DNA of 7,686 bases. It comes from a virus. Its lineage: Duplodnaviria; Heunggongvirae; Uroviricota; Caudoviricetes. The stretch lies in the IMG/VR virus record IMGVR_UViG_2541047934_000011; one strand, 5' to 3'. The translations under genes and the position numbers were made by a program. The first letter of the stretch is position 1, and each line of letters begins with the position of its first letter. The notes under the pieces are model-generated. The model was not told where the DNA came from. It did not search any database and saw only the letters and a list, made by a program, of their open reading frames with translations. Below, in pieces: positions 1,321 to 7,686 of this stretch.

Positions 1321-1544
1321 GGGCAAATCCATTAACACATAAGCAATCAGTATGATTGGTTAGGTGATTACTCTTACTGCGCACAGCGCAATAGATTTCT
1401 TCGTGGGCGTTACCGCCAACGAAGTTACACGAAGAAAGTAACGCTTTGCTTTCGGTGTGAGCGGAACGGGCCAGCCACGAAGCCCGAAAGGTAGCGGAGT
1501 AAGGCTGCTTGCCAGAGAGTGAAGCTAACGCCGGAAGGCAAAAG

Positions 1545-1625
1545 ATCATATATATAGATATAAAGAATATTATTATTATGATCTAATTAATAATCTAATA
1601 TAGTTTTATTAATAGTCTTATTGTA
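1545..1625. other. Near-pure A/T tract (DNA-unwinding-element-like), bracketed by the 8-bp inverted repeat AGATCATA / TATGATCT
   Basis: About 80 bp of almost exclusively A/T immediately after a GC-richer segment (1340..1545). Inverted repeat AGATCATA at about 1543..1550 and TATGATCT at about 1578..1585. No coding potential. Confidence 0.5.
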
Positions 1626-1628
1626 GTT

Positions 1629-1664
1629 CACAGTGACCTACCCCCTAGCTCACTATGACCTACC
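1629..1664 (+). repeat. Two direct copies of CAC(A/T)(G/A)TGACCTACC spaced 22 bp
   Basis: cacagtgacctacc at 1629..1642 and cactatgacctacc at 1651..1664 (12 of 14 identical). Confidence 0.8.
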
Positions 1665-1694
1665 GTTACTACCAATCATCACATAGCACTCACT

Positions 1695-2474
1695 CTGTGT
1701 AATGCCTTTCTATGTGTGTGCCATAATCCCCTATATTCCCTGTGTAAATCATAGAATATCCCTAACTTATTCCTGTGTAATTCCATACTAAAAATTCAAT
1801 GAAAAGTAGCTTAAAAGTGCAATTCTTACTTTCTTCACTTTTACATCACTTTCGCAAATCCTTGTGTAGTGCGGCCTACAGAGCACCATCAGAAATTGTT
1901 GGCTAAAAATTGTTCTGCTTGTTTCTTAACGAGTTTTCTCGTTTGTGCAAATTTTAAAATTTATTTTGTTTTTACAGCCTTATTTCGTGTAATGCGTGGC
2001 ATAGCAAGCCCTTTTCTTGTGTTGTCAAGACATTTGGCAACGTTCAAACATCTGTTTAGAAATGCCAAATTGTTGATCTAACAAATAAACCTGTATAAAC
2101 AGAACACCATTTAATCTATTCCCCTGTGTAATCCACTACATCACACAATAAAAACAAAAAAACCTTTAATTATGTTTCATAGCATACAAAAGTCAACAGA
2201 AGCCCTCTCGTGCTCCTACGTAAAAAATCCATCATTTTCCCCTGATACATCAACTCAAGGCGTTCTATGTGTTCCTTAGTGCATATTACGTTTATTATGT
2301 TAAATTGATTTTGGCCTATATTTTGACCTGCACCCGCATAAACACTGGTTTCATCGCTTACAGTCCTTGTGAGACGTGGTGCTGTTTCTAGCATCTGATC
2401 CGACATAAAACCGATCATTCTCGTGTTTAGTGAAAGTTTAGTGAGAGACATTACAGAAAGGCTTTCTGTGTAAT
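1695..2474 (+). repeat. Dispersed same-orientation motif CTGTGTAAT (5 exact copies plus close variants) in AT-rich non-coding DNA
   Basis: Exact CTGTGTAAT at 1695..1703, 1773..1781, 2124..2132 and 2466..2474, and CTGTGTAAA at 1740..1748. Variants TCGTGTAAT at 1985..1993, TATGTGTGTG at about 1711..1720 and TTGTGTAGT at about 1862..1870. All are on the + strand. A 9-mer recurring this often in under 1 kb is far above chance. Confidence 0.85.
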
Positions 2475-2610
2475 GATTTAATAGGTAAAAACGATGTTGA
2501 TTACGCAAGAAAATTCCTTGCTGATATTTGGGGATTCTGGATTTTCCAGATCGGGGGGCGCTGAAAATCGCGTTAAGCACCTCTCGCAATCTAGCCATAA
2601 GGGAAGGGAT

Positions 2611-2675
2611 ATAGGTATTTAGATGTATTTATAGCTATTTATGGCTATTTATTTTTTATTTACCTTTATTTAAAA
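2611..2675. other. Phased T-tracts with 10-bp periodicity (intrinsically curved DNA)
   Basis: ataggTATTT agatgTATTT atagcTATTT atggcTATTT attttTTATT taccTTTATT: TATTT recurs every 10 bp, i.e. helically phased A/T tracts, a signature of bent DNA at promoters or origins and of H-NS-bound DNA. Confidence 0.7.
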
Positions 2676-2741
2676 ATAACCTTATAAATCAATAAGATAC
2701 ACAACTATCTGTTTATATTTTAATCAATTAAATCAAGTTTA

Positions 2742-2780
2742 ATACCCTTAAATCACCTGAAAATACCCTTAAATACCCCA
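2742..2780 (+). repeat. Direct repeats ATACCCTTAAAT with 21-bp spacing, plus a third partial copy ATACCCCA (iteron-like)
   Basis: ATACCCTTAAAT at 2742..2753 and 2763..2774 (exact, 21 bp apart), then ATACCCCA at 2773..2780. Confidence 0.8.
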
Positions 2781-2942
2781 ATAATTAATTTTAAGGTTTT
2801 CCGTGTTCTCTTCTGCATTATGAAAATGCAAAATAAGGCACAAAACAAGCGCACAGACGCATTAAACACACATCACCTATACATCCCTATACCAAGCAAT
2901 GAAAATAGCGTTAGAATGCGTCCTGTTGCGTTCTGGAGATTT

Positions 2943-3101
2943 TCAGAAATCCTCTCTAAGCCATTTCAACTCATTAAGGAGTTTTCTTTCTTCGTTCTCT
3001 CTCTGTTTACGCTCTAGCCAGGCTTTTCCTTCTGGCGTAGACAGGAACTTACGAGCGTGAATCTTGCGGTTATTACGTTTGATAGCTGCAATGTTTTTCA
3101 T
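2943..3101 (-). CDS. Small basic hypothetical protein, 52 aa (not in the supplied ORF track)
   Basis: Minus-strand ATG at 3101..3099 preceded by AGAGG with 6-nt spacing (...atacAGAGGcacacgATG). Translation MKNIAAIKRNNRKIHARKFLSTPEGKAWLERKQRENEERKLLNELKWLREDF, stop TGA at 2945..2943. Lys/Arg-rich, no hydrophobic segment. It overlaps the +-strand ORF 2820..3017, which has no RBS. Confidence 0.4.
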   Translation of the reverse strand: MKNIAAIKRNNRKIHARKFLSTPEGKAWLERKQRENEERKLLNELKWLREDF

Positions 3102-3923
3102 CGTGTGCCTCTGTATTCATATGAAAATTAACAAGTTACATACTACACAGGGAGACTACGCATAAAACACAATACAAGTAAAGATACATTTTCAAGACAA
3201 TAGGAGCCATAAAGCGCCTTTGATGGGCTACCCCAAAAAATAAGCGCCGTAGGCGTATCCACTAAAAGGGCTTTTTCACAAAAGCTATGAAGTCTTAGCA
3301 GTTCTTCTCTTATCAGGCACCCGTTGTACTCCGGTGGACGAAACCGTGCTAGAGCTTGATTCTTTCCCGATCAAGTTAGGTTTTGAAGAGGTGGGCTTTG
3401 ATCCACTATTGCACTTAAAACTCTTCCCATCATTTAGCCTGTTTATCCTCTGCAACGTCTCACGACGTGTAGCATCATTGGACACCGCGCCAGGTGTGGA
3501 ACATCTTGCTAAGAGTTTTGGTAGAAGGTTTAGAGACGGTGGCACGTCTTCCAGCTTCAAAGGAACTTGTTACGAGGTTGAGCCTGGGAACTACTCGCCC
3601 ATACGTGTTACACTACCAAAGCCCATAACAACGTATAGGCGTTTGTAAGTGATAACAGAAGATACAATTTCTTAGAGAAGTTAAGCTAAGTTATTGATTT
3701 TCTTGATTGTGCGATAATAGGAACAATACACATAGGCGATAAGCTTTGTTTTTGTTGCCTTTTTTATTGTTCATTTTTTATAGATACCCCCAAAAGTACC
3801 CCCATATCTTTTTCCGCCCCTGAAATTTGGTTGTTATTCATACAGCATATCAGGCGGTAACGCTCTCCCTTTAACCCACTTATTGTATGATAGTGCTATC
3901 CCACAATAAGGAATCAGCCAGCC

Positions 3924-4283
3924 ATGAGAATGACCAGCCGCAAAAAAGAGATACTTAGCTACTTTGAACCGGATAACCTCGAATGGGTGACTGGTGAGAT
4001 TGGTGCGCCGCCGTTCGATGTGTCGGGTGTGGCCTACCTGCTTCATGGCATGGTGTCGTTCGATAAGCGTCACCAGCTCGAATCAACCCGGCGCACACTG
4101 GAAAGCATGGTTGCTGGTGGACTGCTTGAGCGGGTGACAGTGTATGAATCGCGCCAGATACGGCGCGGCGGTGATACTAACGCAACGGTCGTGCGCTACG
4201 GTTTACCCGGTCAGTGCGCTGTTATGCGCGATACTGGCGGCGCTGACAACGCAATATCAGGTGAATACATGCGGGTCAGTTAA
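3924..4283 (+). CDS. Hypothetical protein, 119 aa (possible small winged-helix-like DNA-binding protein)
   Basis: ATG at 3924 with AAGGA about 11 nt upstream. GC-richer, E. coli-like codon usage. Translation MRMTSRKKEILSYFEPDNLEWVTGEIG... is not recognised as a known family. The 3' end overlaps the convergent pRiA4b-ORF3-like gene by 8 bp. Confidence 0.5.
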   Translation: MRMTSRKKEILSYFEPDNLEWVTGEIGAPPFDVSGVAYLLHGMVSFDKRHQLESTRRTLESMVAGGLLERVTVYESRQIRRGGDTNATVVRYGLPGQCAVMRDTGGADNAISGEYMRVS

Positions 4284-4818
4284 TAGCCTGCAATCTGTCG
4301 TTGATGCGGCTCAGGTCGTAAACCCGGCGTTCAATATCCAGCATCAGGAAATTGTGGATCTCGGCCTGCTCAGGATTATCAGACTCTCTGGCCTGTAATA
4401 GCAATTCATTGTAACCATGCAAGCCGCCTGAGTTTTCCGCCGGGGTGGTGCCTTTCCCACGCAGGCAGCTAATGGGCTGATTACTCGTATCGTGTGTTTG
4501 CTTCTCCAGCACAATGACGCAATCCCACCAGTCGCCAAAGTCATACGTGTAAACCAGCTTGTCACCCTCATTCTGGAGCGCCGCCCATAGTGGCGTGATT
4601 GCCGCGTTACCCATGCTTTCATCCTCACCCCATACGCGATACTCGCTACCTGGATCACCTTTACGCCCTTTCTCGAACATATACAGGTGTTCGTCATTCC
4701 AGCCAAAAGCTAACTGGATCACGGCATGAAGTTTACTAAAGGGGATTTGCTCTGGAACCAGCACACGCCGCCATATAGGTGGTTTGCTGTCTCGGATGGT
4801 TATCTTTAGCTGGTACAT
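4276..4818 (-). CDS. Plasmid pRiA4b ORF-3-like family protein (Pfam PRiA4_ORF3 / MM3350-like domain), 180 aa, function unknown
   Basis: N-terminus MYQLKITIRDSKPPIWRRVLVPEQIPFSKLHAVIQLAFGWNDEHLYMF carries the signature of the pRiA4b ORF-3-like family (Y.LK.TL.D..PPIWRR..VP...F..LH..IQ...GW...HL..F). ATG at 4818, weak SD (AGGA 8 nt upstream). Confidence 0.8.
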   Translation of the reverse strand: MYQLKITIRDSKPPIWRRVLVPEQIPFSKLHAVIQLAFGWNDEHLYMFEKGRKGDPGSEYRVWGEDESMGNAAITPLWAALQNEGDKLVYTYDFGDWWDCVIVLEKQTHDTSNQPISCLRGKGTTPAENSGGLHGYNELLLQARESDNPEQAEIHNFLMLDIERRVYDLSRINDRLQAIN

Positions 4819-4938
4819 GCAAATCCTGAATAAATGCGAATCGGAAGGATAACGATACTGACGTACTCACAATTCTGTAAAGGTGAATAAAGGAAATTTG
4901 CTTAATACGCATAAGTTACATGTGGAATAATCCCATAT

Positions 4939-5124
4939 CTACCTGCGCGGCGCTGGCTTCTTCCACTGGTAGGCAGGTGCTCGCATCATTTCGCGGAACC
5001 TGTCGCGCCGGGCTATATCGGCATTAACTGATCGTTCTATCTCCCGTTGATCTGCCTGTGTAAGCTGGTGGCCTCCGTGCTCAAGTTTGGCGATGGTCAA
5101 TAAGGCTATTTCGCGTGGTGTCAT
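4939..5124 (-). CDS. Small hypothetical protein, 61 aa
   Basis: ATG at 5124..5122 preceded by GAGGG at 8-nt spacing (ccaGAGGGtatgacgtATG). Translation MTPREIALLTIAKLEHGGHQLTQADQREIERSVNADIARRDRFREMMRAPAYQWKKPAPRR. Co-oriented between the PerC-like and pRiA4b-like genes. Confidence 0.45.
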   Translation of the reverse strand: MTPREIALLTIAKLEHGGHQLTQADQREIERSVNADIARRDRFREMMRAPAYQWKKPAPRR

Positions 5125-5350
5125 ACGTCATACCCTCTGGAAGAATGAAACACGCCCGGATTAAATTTCATTTTTCGCGGGTATAAAAAAACGATGGGGC
5201 GGGCAGTCCCGGATAGTCAGGGCTGTAGAGATTTGACTACCCCCTCCCCACTGGATTCAGGTTACTGCTATTCCGTTAAGCGCTGCTTACGGGGATAGCT
5301 GCGTTGTGATTTTGACCATTCAGGTCGCCGCTATTTCCTCACCGATTGGG

Positions 5351-5373
5351 TGCTACGCGCGCGCGTACTTGTC
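5351..5373 (+). repeat. Repeat family copy a: TGCTA(CG)5TACTTGTC, containing the 14-bp palindrome TACGCGCGCGCGTA
   Basis: tgctacgcgcgcgcgtacttgtc, followed by CCGAAATACCAG. Near-identical to copy b at 6761..6781 apart from one extra CG unit. Lies in the intergenic region downstream of the PerC-like gene. Confidence 0.85.
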
Positions 5374-5395
5374 CCGAAATACCAGAAACCGCCAG

Positions 5396-5417
5396 CCAGA
5401 GGATGATTTCCCTCTGG
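5396..5417 (-). terminator. Candidate intrinsic terminator hairpin downstream of the PerC-like gene
   Basis: On the minus strand: CCAGAGG-gaaatcat-CCTCTGG (7-bp stem, 8-nt loop) starting 5 nt after the stop (5424..5422), followed by a moderately T-rich tail (ctggcggTTTcTggTaTTTcgg). Not a canonical U-run, so weak. Confidence 0.3.
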
Positions 5418-5421
5418 TGGT

Positions 5422-5703
5422 CTACCTTTGCCTCTTGCCGCCATTTAACCGGAAGGCGTTACCGTTCGGTTGCGCTATCCCCATGCGGTGTTGCGTTTCG
5501 GTAACAGCTTTATGCAGGTCGCCAAATTCCTCAACCTTCACGGGCGGGCGCTTCACGTTCTCCAGACACGTTTCACGGCGGCGCTTTATCCATTCCCGAT
5601 CATCGTCCTCGGTGCATAACAGCATGACTTCCATCCATCGTGCGGCAGCTCTCCGGTATAGCCCTTTTGACTCCAGCTCTTCAGCTTTCCTGTCCCTTAT
5701 CAT
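5422..5703 (-). CDS. PerC-family (Pch-like) transcriptional regulator, 93 aa
   Basis: ATG at 5703..5701 with strong SD GAGAGG (5714..5709). Translation MIRDRKAEELESKGLYRRAAARWMEVM...REWIKRRRETCLE... carries the conserved PerC-family core (AE.LE.KGL.RRAA.RW..VM) recalled from EPEC PerC and EHEC Pch proteins. Confidence 0.75.
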   Translation of the reverse strand: MIRDRKAEELESKGLYRRAAARWMEVMLLCTEDDDREWIKRRRETCLENVKRPPVKVEEFGDLHKAVTETQHRMGIAQPNGNAFRLNGGKRQR

Positions 5704-5708
5704 TTCTG

Positions 5709-5722
5709 CCTCTCAGATTATA
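5709..5722 (-). promoter_or_regulatory. Candidate sigma70 -10 element (TATAAT) and SD for the PerC-like gene, abutting the tandem repeat array
   Basis: Minus-strand reading: ...tgaaccaacacctttttgcttatctaTATAATctGAGAGGcagaaATG. Perfect TATAAT at 5722..5717, and the position of a -35 would fall on the first repeat unit. The leader would be very short. Confidence 0.4.
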
Positions 5723-5739
5723 TAGATAAGCAAAAAGGT

Positions 5740-5784
5740 GTTGGTTCAGTTGGTTCAGTTGGTTCAGTTGGTTCAGTTGGTTCA
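5740..5784 (+). repeat. Five perfect head-to-tail copies of the 9-bp unit GTTGGTTCA (iteron- or operator-like array)
   Basis: Exact tandem units at 5740..5748, 5749..5757, 5758..5766, 5767..5775 and 5776..5784, followed by a 43-bp AT-rich spacer. Confidence 0.95.
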
Positions 5785-5827
5785 ATTTGTAAAGATTGTT
5801 GTTTTTATTGTGTTTTTTCTGAAATAT

Positions 5828-5878
5828 TGAACCAACATCAACTCATTTTGAACCAACACAGCCCAGCTCTGAACCAAC
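5828..5878 (-). repeat. Three inverted-orientation copies of the same unit (TGAACCAAC on the + strand) phased exactly 21 bp apart
   Basis: TGAACCAACA at 5828, 5849 and 5870. Each begins a 21-bp unit (tgaaccaacatcaactcattt / tgaaccaacacagcccagctc / tgaaccaacaacacagcgata), so copies sit two helical turns apart on the same DNA face. Confidence 0.95.
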
Positions 5879-5931
5879 AACACAGCGATAGATTTGTGAT
5901 TGGTCCGTTATTTTCTGGCTGATATTTGAGC

Positions 5932-5948
5932 GTATAACAGTGTTATAC
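5932..5948. promoter_or_regulatory. 17-bp palindrome GTATAACA-g-TGTTATAC (operator-like) overlapping a candidate extended -10 upstream of the RHH gene
   Basis: Perfect inverted 8-bp arms around a central G, followed by GTATAC at 5954..5959. TGTTATAC resembles an extended -10 (TGnTATAc). Located 33 to 49 bp upstream of the ATG at 5981. Confidence 0.4.
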
Positions 5949-5980
5949 AGTGGTATACTGTATGGATATTACTCACTGAT

Positions 5981-6436
5981 ATGGTCTTTGCAATGAGCAA
6001 ATCTAATCTGGTCGCGTTCCGCATCCCATCTGAATTGCAGGATGAGTTTAATCGGTCTGTTCTCGCTTCTGGAGGAGATAAAACCTCCTGGCTTGTTGAT
6101 GCGATTCGCATGAAGCTGGGGCAGCCGGAAAAGTCTATTGATTCACGAATGCTTGGGCTGGTGGAGCGCATGGAAAAAGCCGCTGCGTCGCTTATTGCCG
6201 GAAAGCCGAACATCCCACCAAAACCATATAACGAAACGGCAGTTATAAAGATCATTGCCGATACCATCCAACAGGGATTTGATAATGGGCGTGTGATAGC
6301 TGAACGGATCAATGAAGCAGGCTATCAAACAAAAGCTGGTAAAGCGTGGGATAAAGATATTTACAGCGCGTGGAAGCGTCAGGGAAGCAATGCTGAAAAG
6401 CTAAAAGCAGTGATTGATTGTAAGGTCAGCGTATAA
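5981..6436 (+). CDS. Ribbon-helix-helix (Arc/MetJ/CopG-like) DNA-binding protein with a C-terminal extension of about 100 aa, 151 aa (147 aa if the ATG at 5993 is used)
   Basis: From the second ATG: MSKSNLVAFRIPSELQDEFNRSVLASGGDKTSWLVDAIRMKLG fits the RHH pattern (beta-strand with alternating hydrophobics and R.P.EL, helix A, G.[ST] N-cap turn, helix B). Neither ATG has an obvious SD, so the start is uncertain. Stop TAA at 6434..6436. Confidence 0.6.
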   Translation: MVFAMSKSNLVAFRIPSELQDEFNRSVLASGGDKTSWLVDAIRMKLGQPEKSIDSRMLGLVERMEKAAASLIAGKPNIPPKPYNETAVIKIIADTIQQGFDNGRVIAERINEAGYQTKAGKAWDKDIYSAWKRQGSNAEKLKAVIDCKVSV

Positions 6437-6515
6437 ACATGAGTGCCCATTGGAAAGTTGCTTGGGCCAATACCTTTATACACCAGCAGGTAGTGACGAT
6501 AGGTGAGGATCAGAT

Positions 6516-6737
6516 ATGAAAGGCAGAACGCCACACATTGAACATCAAGCCAACCACTTCCCTGATGTTCGCAATGAGATGATTGCCATTCGCGGTGATA
6601 TGCACGGATTGGAGCGTCGAATTATTGATAAGATTGATGAAAATAGAGATAAGGCCAGTGAAAATCAAAAGTGGATCATCGGCCTGTTGATTTTATCAAT
6701 TCTTATCCCGCTACTTATCGCATTGGTCACAAAATGA
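6516..6737 (+). CDS. XhlA-like (hemolysin XhlA family) small tail-anchored membrane protein, 73 aa
   Basis: Strong SD GGTGAGGA (6502..6509) 6 nt before the ATG. Predicted coiled-coil N-terminus and a single C-terminal hydrophobic helix (WIIGLLILSILIPLLIALV). The ENQKW motif just before the transmembrane segment recalls the XhlA family of phage lysis-associated proteins. Confidence 0.6.
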   Translation: MKGRTPHIEHQANHFPDVRNEMIAIRGDMHGLERRIIDKIDENRDKASENQKWIIGLLILSILIPLLIALVTK

Positions 6738-6760
6738 ATATCCAATGTGTATGCTGTCGA

Positions 6761-6781
6761 TGCTACGCGCGCGTACTTGTC
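6761..6781 (+). repeat. Repeat family copy b: TGCTA(CG)4TACTTGTC, containing the 12-bp palindrome TACGCGCGCGTA
   Basis: tgctacgcgcgcgtacttgtc, followed by GCAAAATATCAG. Matches copy a over about 35 bp with one fewer CG unit and a few substitutions. Lies 24 bp downstream of the XhlA-like stop. Confidence 0.85.
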
Positions 6782-6998
6782 GCAAAATATCAGGCAAAGG
6801 CCAGATTCAGAAAGTCGTGATAACCACCAGCACAACATGAGAGGTCATGTAACGCGATTTATCACACCAGATACATGTGATTGGTGTACCCGCATAAAAC
6901 ATCGTCATAGCGCGTCCTGTGCGCATATACGCCGATAATCAACACATCACCACCACTCTGTCTCATGTAGAGAACAGTTTTATGGTATCCCCCGCCAT

Positions 6999-7148
6999 CG
7001 TGTGCGTACTGGTCGGACGCAGTTGCAAAAAATTTTGCAACTGATACCCCTCGCGCGCGTACTGGTCACGAAATTGGTGTTTTGCTGTGGCAGTGATATC
7101 AGAAAAATCTTCCTGTTTCACATAAAGCGGATATGCGCGTACTGTAAC
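6999..7148 (+). promoter_or_regulatory. Repeat and palindrome cluster upstream of the 7259 gene: three more family copies plus an operator-like palindrome
   Basis: GTGTGCGTACTGGTC at 6999..7013; palindrome AGTTGCAAAA-aa-TTTTGCAACT at 7021..7042; TCGCGCGCGTACTGGTCACGAAAT at 7051..7074; TGCGCGTACTGTAAC at 7134..7148. All repeat copies are in the same orientation. Confidence 0.6.
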
Positions 7149-7258
7149 GGCCCCATCAACTGGGAGCGGACTTGAAATCCCGACCCAAGCTATGTACCAA
7201 ATGCCATGTCTTGGATATATGATGATTGCCATTCTAAACAACGCTAAAGGGGGTTGGT

Positions 7259-7537
7259 GTGAGCAGAAAAGATACTAAAGAATTGCTAACTATCTGCATG
7301 GTGTACTTTTCAATTTATTTTTGTGCATACATGATAGTCCCAGATGAGTTTGAACATGGCAGTATTATTTATTCCATAACATTCTATTTTTTAGAGCTAA
7401 CACCAATTTTGGCTATCCTTTTGGGAATACATATTTATTTTTCCTTAAAAAAAGAATCGACTAATTGGGAGAAGGTATGGAGAGACAGAGGATTTCTAAG
7501 GAAGGTGCGAATAAGCGGGGAAATTCTTCTCGGCTGA
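7259..7537 (+). pseudogene. Small AT-rich two-transmembrane-helix membrane protein gene interrupted by IS5 (native part 7259..7499, about 80 codons; the last 12 codons and the stop are IS5-encoded)
   Basis: GTG start at 7259 with SD AGGGGG 5 nt upstream. Two hydrophobic helices (LLTICMVYFSIYFCAYMIV and IIYSITFYFLELTPILAILLGIHIYFSL) then a charged tail. The reading frame runs across the IS5 junction at 7500, so the C-terminus ...RKVRISGEILLG is read from the IS5 terminal repeat. The original 3' end is unknown. Confidence 0.5.
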
Positions 7538-7686
7538 CTCAGTCATTTCATTTCTTCATGTTTGAGCCGATTTTTTCTCCCGTAAATGCCTTGAATCAGC
7601 CTATTTAGACCGTTTCTTCGCCATTTAAGGCGTTATCCCCAGTTTTTAGTGAGATCTCTCCCACTGACGTATCATTTGGTCCACCC
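7500..7686 (-). mobile_element. IS5, partial (first 187 bp of the element; the window ends inside it)
   Basis: GGAAGGTGCGAATAAGCGGGGAAATTCTTCTCGGCTGACTCAGTCATTTC... from 7500 matches the IS5 terminal inverted repeat and adjacent sequence as recalled. It is preceded by CTAA (7496..7499), which fits the known IS5 target preference C(T/A)A(G/A). The transposase is on the minus strand. Confidence 0.88.
7646..7686 (-). CDS. insH: IS5 transposase InsH, C-terminal fragment (5'-truncated by the window end)
   Basis: Minus-strand translation of 7684..7649 gives VDQMIRQWERSH followed by stop TAA (7648..7646). This matches the recalled InsH C-terminus ...ADQMIRQWERSH, with one A-to-V difference. Confidence 0.7.
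   Translation of the reverse strand, partial: VDQMIRQWERSH

Follow-up and report, generated by a model that had tools for sequence, protein, structure and literature searches.

The Vibrio satellite PLE (phage-inducible chromosomal island-like element) needs 14 bp mimicking the packaging (pac) site of phage ICP1 (Boyd & Seed 2024, bioRxiv 10.1101/2024.04.22.590561). In phage P22, a 22-bp pac site lies inside gene 3, the gene of the small terminase (TerS, encoded by terS), is asymmetric and directs unidirectional packaging (PMC9611059, PMC8022706), and the TerS of phage Sf6 also recognises a specific pac site (PMC7672466). The pac region of SPP1 contains several direct repeats, proposed as contacts of the helix-turn-helix ring of TerS (PMC4737164); in later work, the TerS DNA-binding domain of phage SF6, an SPP1 relative, proved little specific for the SPP1/SF6 pac repeats. 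The 20-kb phage-inducible chromosomal island (PICI) EcCIMP1 of Escherichia coli is inserted at tRNA-Thr, with proA and yagU on either side. The P22-like phage Kapi1, which is no generalised transducer, induces the island and transduces it specifically; terminase and capsid genes are lacking in EcCIMP1, and how it is packaged is given as unknown (PMC11773190). Here we analyse a stretch of 7,686 nucleotides (nt) from IMG/VR record IMGVR_UViG_2541047934_000011, referred to as the window, which contains the distal end of an EcCIMP1-like PICI, and trace a family of five short repeats in it to terS coding DNA.

All five copies that an earlier reading of the sequence, the original prediction, had reported were found at the positions given (Table 1). 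Copies a, b and c are strong, d and e weaker, with cgcGCGCGTACTkGTCnnGAAAT as the shared core, and all five lie on the plus strand in non-coding DNA. The repeat search of the window groups 5358-5385, 6766-6793 and 7052-7079 as one 28-nt family with identities of 79-100%. With up to two mismatches allowed, the pattern GCGCGTACTKGTC matches four times, always on the plus strand, against a mean of 0.17 in 200 dinucleotide-preserving shuffles of the window, none of which gave four matches; copy e, which misses the two-mismatch cut-off, has the same orientation. The dispersed sites of fixed polarity that had been suspected on a mobile element therefore form a genuine family, above shuffle expectation. 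Their intergenic placement holds as well, since no RefSeq coding sequence (CDS) runs across any copy in the 99.9% identical locus L001, and the minus-strand reading frames vary between the window copies and contain stops. Copy a is flanked by the perC stop (5422) on one side and a 61-aa gene (start 5124) on the other, whereas copy b marks the border between variable cargo and a conserved non-coding block of 500 bp. Within this block copies d and c are 53 nt apart, the other spacing being 80 nt.

The second palindrome reported between copies d and c is present. In relatives its arms are kept and the central A/T run differs in length, and the stretch from d through the palindrome to c folds on the plus strand at -29.4 kcal/mol (z = -3.5). 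In locus L003, 53 bp with copy d and the palindrome are missing and a single hybrid d/c copy remains. The (CG)n palindrome that had been put at the centre of the repeat did not prove to be a common feature: the dyad TACGCGCGCGTA is limited to copies a and b and is lost in c, d, e and in independent copies elsewhere, so that the conserved unit is an asymmetric (CG)n-GTAC-TkGTC-nn-GAAAT without dyad.

What escaped the original prediction is that the motif, on the minus strand, corresponds in sequence to a piece of the helper's TerS coding region. The minus-strand core, ATTT(T)CGnGAC(A/C)AGTACGCGCGCG, translates into F-R-D-(K/Q)-Y-A-R-A, the most conserved peptide of Sf6-type TerS proteins. Outside PICIs, matches to the pattern lie in frame on F-R/S/L-D-Q-Y-A-R-A in small-terminase genes directly upstream of terL, the gene of the large terminase (TerL); these belong to three unrelated phage groups and are assigned to PF20901 (Sf6_terminase) by Pfam. 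A codon-degenerate scan finds the peptide in more than 100 TerS genes, and FRDQYARA is near-invariant in the Sf6_terminase family across guanine-plus-cytosine (GC) contents of 35-68%. In Sf6 gene 1, nt 163-189 (GATTTTCGCGACAAGTACGCGAAGGCA) encode D55-A63, the repeat segment representing F56-A63. As the codons vary freely and follow GC content, the sequence inside terS is explained by the protein, and a universal DNA-level constraint on the motif within terS can be ruled out. The copies of the window, in contrast, are not explained by the protein, since they stand in differing frames, with stops and without an annotated CDS. A decayed ash or terS gene in the block 6757-7262 was considered and rejected, as tblastn yields motif-sized matches only.

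Kapi1 possesses an Sf6-type terS, 98.6% identical to Sf6 gene 1, and the sole near-match to the motif in its 39.4 kb lies inside this gene. Two variants of the segment occur in E. coli terS genes, TTTCGCGACAAGTACGCG (K) in Sf6, Kapi1 and HK620, and TTTCGTGACCAGTACGCG (Q) in the Sf6-type terS of a prophage of strain O26:H11 11368. Copies a and b match the K variant at 17 of 18 positions and copy c matches the Q variant exactly (18/18), together covering nt 164-183 of helper terS, the candidate pac stretch. Based on this pattern of matches, the T(G/T)GTC polymorphism of the repeats is the AAG/CAG codon polymorphism of helper terS. Copy c switches type between islands, with 10 K and 8 Q among the loci examined. 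The similarity of EcCIMP1 to the Kapi1 terS region consists solely of the 17/18 matches of copies a and b. Pairing of island and terS variants within genomes was compared through IMG/VR genome ids for the best 80 loci; among the matches listed, one isolate genome (2563366968) holds both, K with K, and one metagenome contig combines an Sf6-type terS with the repeats, no Q-type pair being found among them, which is uninformative on variant matching.

Sequence comparison assigns 3713-7499 of the window to a chromosomal PICI at tRNA-Thr, flanked by an IS2 (insertion sequence; complete at 1-1331) and an IS5 (end at 7500-7686), and not to a plasmid. Identity to EcCIMP1 of E. coli MP1 (L223) is 97.8% over 3706-5879 (2.2 kb) and 97.0% over 6757-7186 (0.43 kb). 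The attachment (att) core GATAATAGGA at 3713-3722, the reverse complement of TCCTATTATC (PMC11773190), identifies 3713-7499 as the distal end of the island and 1332-3712 as part of a neighbouring island. The distal end contains a 119-aa open reading frame (ORF), a pRiA4b-ORF3 gene, a 61-aa ORF, perC, iterons, a 151-aa ORF, an XhlA-like ORF, the repeat block and a membrane-protein gene truncated by IS5; Pfam matches in the window include PerC and PRiA4_ORF3. Membership among EcCIMP1-like PICIs is thus given by the att core, the module of perC and pRiA4b-ORF3, and nucleotide identity. Locus L001 (strain SCU-172) is 99.9% identical across 6.1 kb, and 1305 of 5426 complete E. coli genomes carry part of the chromosomal DNA of the window. 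A plasmid or phage origin was rejected, as 3700-7500 has no phage match and 7 partial matches in the plasmid collection, one of them to a 4.9-Mb chromosome record.

Related loci continue with P22-type genes 16, 20, 7 and 14, a P4-type primase gene and an ash/C4 immunity region, and end with antA/B, alpA and int. This gene order fits the Integration-Bro-Replication-Late layout of Gram-negative PICIs with captured helper late genes (PMC10111431). EcCIMP1-like islands depend on the terminase of the helper and have no terminase genes of their own; terS and terL markers were not found in those EcCIMP1-like loci that lack head genes. The island in the window belongs to the same family as EcCIMP1, marked by the tRNA-Thr att core, perC, pRiA4b-ORF3, captured P22-like ejection-protein genes and 97-98% nucleotide identity over the shared parts (PMC11773190). 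It differs in cargo, which is alpA_1 in EcCIMP1 and a 151-aa ORF with an XhlA-like gene here, and in the Q type of its copy c. The EcCIMP1 paper (PMC11773190) makes no mention of the repeats.

Table 1. Coordinates of the island end, the repeat copies and the second palindrome in the window.
Feature	Position	Strand	Evidence or sequence
Distal (accessory) end of EcCIMP1-like PICI	3713..7499	none	Identity to EcCIMP1, att core, Pfam
Copy a	5351..5385	motif +; terS sense (-)	GTAC at 5365; (-) reading ATTTCGGGACAAGTACGCGCGCGCGTAG, K type
Copy b	6759..6793	terS sense (-)	GTAC at 6773; (-) reading ATTTTGCGACAAGTACGCGCGCGTAG, K type
Copy d, degenerate	7002..7014	terS sense (-)	GACCAGTACGCAC, Q type
22-bp palindrome	7021..7042	none	AGTTGCAAAAAATTTTGCAACT, between copies d and c
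Copy c	7051..7079	terS sense (-)	(-) reading ATTTCGTGACCAGTACGCGCGCGAGGGG, Q type
Copy e, partial	7134..7148	terS sense (-)	Retains CAGTACGCGC only (+ strand GCGCGTACTG)

The recurrence in related elements that had been named as a check was found in EcCIMP1 and in more than 20 IMG/VR loci. EcCIMP1 itself carries a, b and c as well as d in degenerate form, in one common orientation, with copy a at L223 10357 and copy b at 12111. An exact 20-nt pattern scan of IMG/VR returned 36 stretches, in which the core is also present in several unrelated flanking sequences. Loci of other PICI types (L019, L022, L113, L243, L303 and L247) have one to three copies in the Bro zone, co-oriented with the main operon. 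Whichever way the neighbouring genes run, the repeats point the same way on the island map in every locus and PICI type examined. A further IMG/VR locus (L269, 1500-7500, GC 61%) holds an orphan Sf6-type terS without adjoining terL and, 5-6 kb downstream of it and in the same orientation, three to four non-coding GTTTCGGGACCAGTACGCGCGTGCGCGCGAGGG copies, an independent non-enteric pairing. In L247, the motif at 2056-2078 is in frame within the primase gene (…HFRDQYARATLIIAADND…), and a second, non-coding copy in the same orientation follows 6.5 kb downstream. The same scan of a genome-contig collection gave about 100 single matches in unrelated taxa, about the chance number and therefore uninformative, and a non-coding match in a low-GC phage (L268) is probably a (CG)n hairpin terminator combined with a chance match.

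Since a satellite that is specifically packaged without a terminase of its own must present a pac sequence of the helper type, and with PLE and ICP1 as precedent, we tentatively propose, somewhat short of even confidence, that the repeats are mimics of the pac recognition sequence of the helper. Helper TerS would bind the copies on replicated island DNA, TerL would cut near the bound copies, and headful packaging would then proceed in one direction. Three to five co-oriented non-coding copies of 18-24 bases, representing both the AAG and the CAG variant, would serve as the mimics. A directional packaging signal would be expected to keep a constant orientation on the island map regardless of local transcription, as the copies do, and the same core in unrelated flanks of other PICI types and beside the orphan terS of L269 likewise counts in favour of pac mimicry.

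The arrangement agrees with PLE and ICP1 in that a satellite unrelated to its helper contains a short stretch identical to helper DNA (14 bp there, 12-18 bp here), kept across satellite variants. However, PLE has a single mimic, the pac site of ICP1 is intergenic and its requirement for transduction was shown experimentally, whereas here three to five copies are found, the helper counterpart is coding DNA inside terS, and mimicry is proposed from sequence. P22-like pac sites also lie within terS, but the copies in the window are multiple and outside any terS gene. SPP1 shares the repeated boxes and differs in terminase family and host. E. coli PICIs such as EcCICFT073, reportedly described by Fillol-Salom et al. 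in 2019, are said to carry cos sites, with Rpp retargeting the helper TerS. As far as is generally known, the EcCICFT073 type would then have in common with the island that it is a Gram-negative PICI using the helper terminase and bearing a helper-like packaging site near its distal end; it uses cos phages and Rpp, whereas the helper here is a headful (pac) podovirus.

Several points weigh against pac mimicry. The 17/18 matches between EcCIMP1 and Kapi1 are, taken alone, at chance level for a comparison of 20 kb with 39 kb (E = 2.3). Past GTACGCG the island copies continue with CGCGCG and the E. coli helpers with AAGGCA, which places the copies nearer to the family consensus (Y-A-R-A) than to any known E. 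coli helper. Residues 56-63, for which the motif codes, form the extreme end of the DNA-binding domain; the Sf6 pac site was reportedly placed by Leavitt et al. in 2013 within the part of gene 1 encoding this domain. Copies of other PICIs adjoin the C4/isrK immunity-RNA locus, which could indicate a regulatory role. Moreover, transduction of EcCIMP1 by Kapi1 is extremely low (PMC11773190), and in vitro the DNA binding of TerS from pac phages is weak and of low specificity (PMC9611059).

The alternative that survives best, which we nevertheless regard as rather unlikely, is that the copies are sites for a regulatory protein other than TerS, encoded by island or helper, that controls accessory genes and, elsewhere, the C4-type immunity locus. 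Such a site stays plausible because copies in other PICIs (L019, L022, L243, L303 and L113) lie 90-190 nt upstream of c4-a1b1/isrK/C4 RNA, a promoter- or operator-like position; the copies are also intergenic and conserved, and d and c flank the conserved 22-bp palindrome. Direct repeats are, in addition, typical binding targets of Xis/AlpA-type proteins. Against this, no sigma-70-like promoter is predicted at any copy and the dyad is unconserved, which also removes the basis for the KorA/KorB-type dimeric plasmid operator put forward in the original prediction, the element being a chromosomal phage satellite. Copy a lies between two minus-strand genes and b-e between plus-strand genes; copy a and the Bro-zone copies are directed like the local genes, whereas the direction of b-e is opposite to that of the late operon and agrees with that of the membrane-protein gene. 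An orientation inconsistent relative to genes and constant relative to the whole island argues against the promoter- or terminator-like role that had been slightly favoured on account of the fixed orientation. No terminator-like site is predicted in 4800-7400, and the region of copy b folds no better than shuffles on either strand (z = +0.4 and +1.7). A phage-specific promoter of the single-subunit RNA polymerase type, or a late promoter, was rejected as well, as only the island-wide orientation is constant. Furthermore, the copies stay in place whatever the adjoining cargo (alpA_1, Abi, ImmA or XhlA), and in EcCIMP1 neither the surroundings of the alpA promoter nor the Bro zone of the island contain a copy. 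Finally, a regulatory site leaves the identity with terS coding DNA and the tracking of the K/Q variants unexplained.

Distinctly less likely, in our view, are short homology ('boundary') sequences without a binding partner, which would promote modular exchange by homologous recombination, both among islands and between islands and the terS or late regions of helpers. The similarity of hundreds of E. coli genomes to the window begins at about 6757, i.e. at copy b, L003 has its d/c hybrid with the 53-bp deletion, and within terS a group at 91% identity differs upstream of the motif and is identical downstream. PICIs have been proposed to capture helper late genes (PMC10111431), and 'boundary sequences' are annotated elsewhere in the genome in the Sf6 record. 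However, any conserved functional site beside a cargo hotspot would be just as likely to show a breakpoint like that at copy b, and copies 53-80 bp apart enclose nothing exchangeable. Linkers have no known selective maintenance, yet a core of 20-24 nt is kept amid unrelated flanks in several PICI types and GC contents.

An effect at the RNA level is improbable. Here, transcripts running through b-e on the plus strand would act as antisense RNA against codons 56-61 of the helper terS mRNA and interfere with helper packaging, in line with the position of b-e between co-oriented plus-strand genes, the 17-18 nt of complementarity to helper terS and the C4-type antisense RNA immunity that these PICIs already possess. 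But copy a and all Bro-zone copies are sense relative to local transcription, and Kapi1 titres are not lowered by EcCIMP1 after induction; inconsistent orientation and unreduced titres together disfavour the antisense role. No Rfam family matches the window, and there is no signal of structure or of complementarity with C4 RNA. The copies as targets of the C4-CI immunity RNA (a1b1/seqA) were likewise rejected, since duplex energies with the EcCIMP1 C4 RNA are in the shuffle range (z -1.7 to +1.3); in other PICIs the copies stand beside C4-type RNAs and do not overlap them.

Functionless relics of a decayed, locally duplicated terS-derived sequence are least probable of all: d and e are indeed degenerate, the d-c pair resembles a local 53-bp duplication and copy a is in the perC frame, 23 codons after the perC stop, and ends ...FRDKYARA-stop, but only the same 20-24-nt core, with no other part of terS, survives at five sites here and at many independent sites elsewhere, and neutral decay would not repeatedly keep one segment in one orientation and in both helper variants.

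Returning to pac mimicry, its general form, namely that EcCIMP1-type and related Gram-negative PICIs are terminase-less pac-type satellites packaged via arrays of short DNA 'barcodes' derived from the most conserved coding segment of Sf6-family terS, is possible and put forward with slightly more reserve than the proposal for the window itself. If so, the presence of AAG and CAG barcodes on one island would permit capture by different helper lineages, and the pac determinant of the Sf6 family would be the codons of F-R-D-x-Y-A-x-A, the DNA-binding domain thus recognising its own coding boundary. The host element is known, but neither the repeats nor their match to helper terS were found described; mimicry of packaging signals by satellites is known too, and a multi-copy, two-variant, coding-derived arrangement would be new. 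EcCIMP1-like islands or parts of them are found in about one quarter of the complete E. coli genomes and have perC-type virulence regulators and defence functions as cargo. A short cis-element would provide a handle on the packaging of EcCIMP1, which PMC11773190 leaves open, and K/Q matching would offer a prediction of which phages mobilise which islands. The motif would also be an independent pointer to DNA recognition by Sf6-family terminases, which is hard to show in vitro.

Apart from the repeats, a number of features of the island and its surroundings were noted. Att-site remnants were rejected as a source of the repeats, the att core of EcCIMP1 being unrelated to the motif. Between perC and the 151-aa ORF, 9-bp iterons (GTTGGTTCA) stand five times in tandem in 5740-5880, with three copies of TGAACCAAC in inverted orientation after them, and 5758-5858 is 83% identical, inverted, to DNA just downstream of the EcCIMP1 primase gene (L223 19296-19396). 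As replication origins (ori) of PICIs usually lie at this place behind the primase gene, the island seems to have a second ori-like iteron block. For a stretch of roughly 100 bp upstream of the 61-aa ORF (5151-5254), over 1000 further E. coli genomes contain matches of about 85% identity in DNA without annotation. In locus L021, a homologue of the 61-aa ORF has the motif joined to its very start (MGFRDQYARAK), and approximately 230 bp including 5151-5254 thus look inserted in the version of the window. The 61-aa ORF as a TerS fragment without DNA-binding domain was rejected, as BLASTP similarity is restricted to the 8-residue motif and to the L021 homologue.

An XhlA-like gene for a small membrane protein is located downstream of gene 16 both in Kapi1 (L222 32628-34942) and in the island (5981-6737), with no nucleotide similarity detected between these two regions. 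The genes that Kapi1 carries in this place are of the Arc family (immI-like); in the island it is the 151-aa ORF, the ribbon-helix-helix candidate of the original prediction, for which no Pfam match was obtained. At the distal border, the IS5 end follows CTAA at 7496-7499 and cuts the gene of a 204-aa membrane protein that is intact in L001 (20921-21535).

A 25.4-kb IMG/VR metagenome contig (L029 and L187) carries the whole late operon of a P22-like phage, including a terS of the Sf6 type. Its gene 16 is followed directly, without an intervening tailspike gene, by the membrane-protein gene, the repeat block and alpA_1 of the PICI. The contig could be a phage-island recombinant, a helper-embedded island or an assembly chimera. 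In the portion of the literature on helper-embedded PICIs considered here, the 14 named late-gene sites include Terminase_1, capsid E, CLP protease, tail tube and portal, with no small-terminase site among them.

Outside the att core, 1332-3712, like L338 3377-15721, is AT-rich and mostly non-coding, with CCTGTGTAAT-like repeats and 10-bp repeats of the TATTTA type. An EcCIMP1-like island at tRNA-Thr of O26:H11 11368 was sought and discarded, as another island occupies the site. The neighbouring island to which 1332-3712 belongs uses the same tRNA-Thr and, in L001 and in O26:H11 11368, codes for a separate integrase as well as a 'phage baseplate protein', joined in O26:H11 11368 by a major capsid protein. 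This neighbour may be a capsid-forming PICI arranged in tandem with the EcCIMP1-like island.

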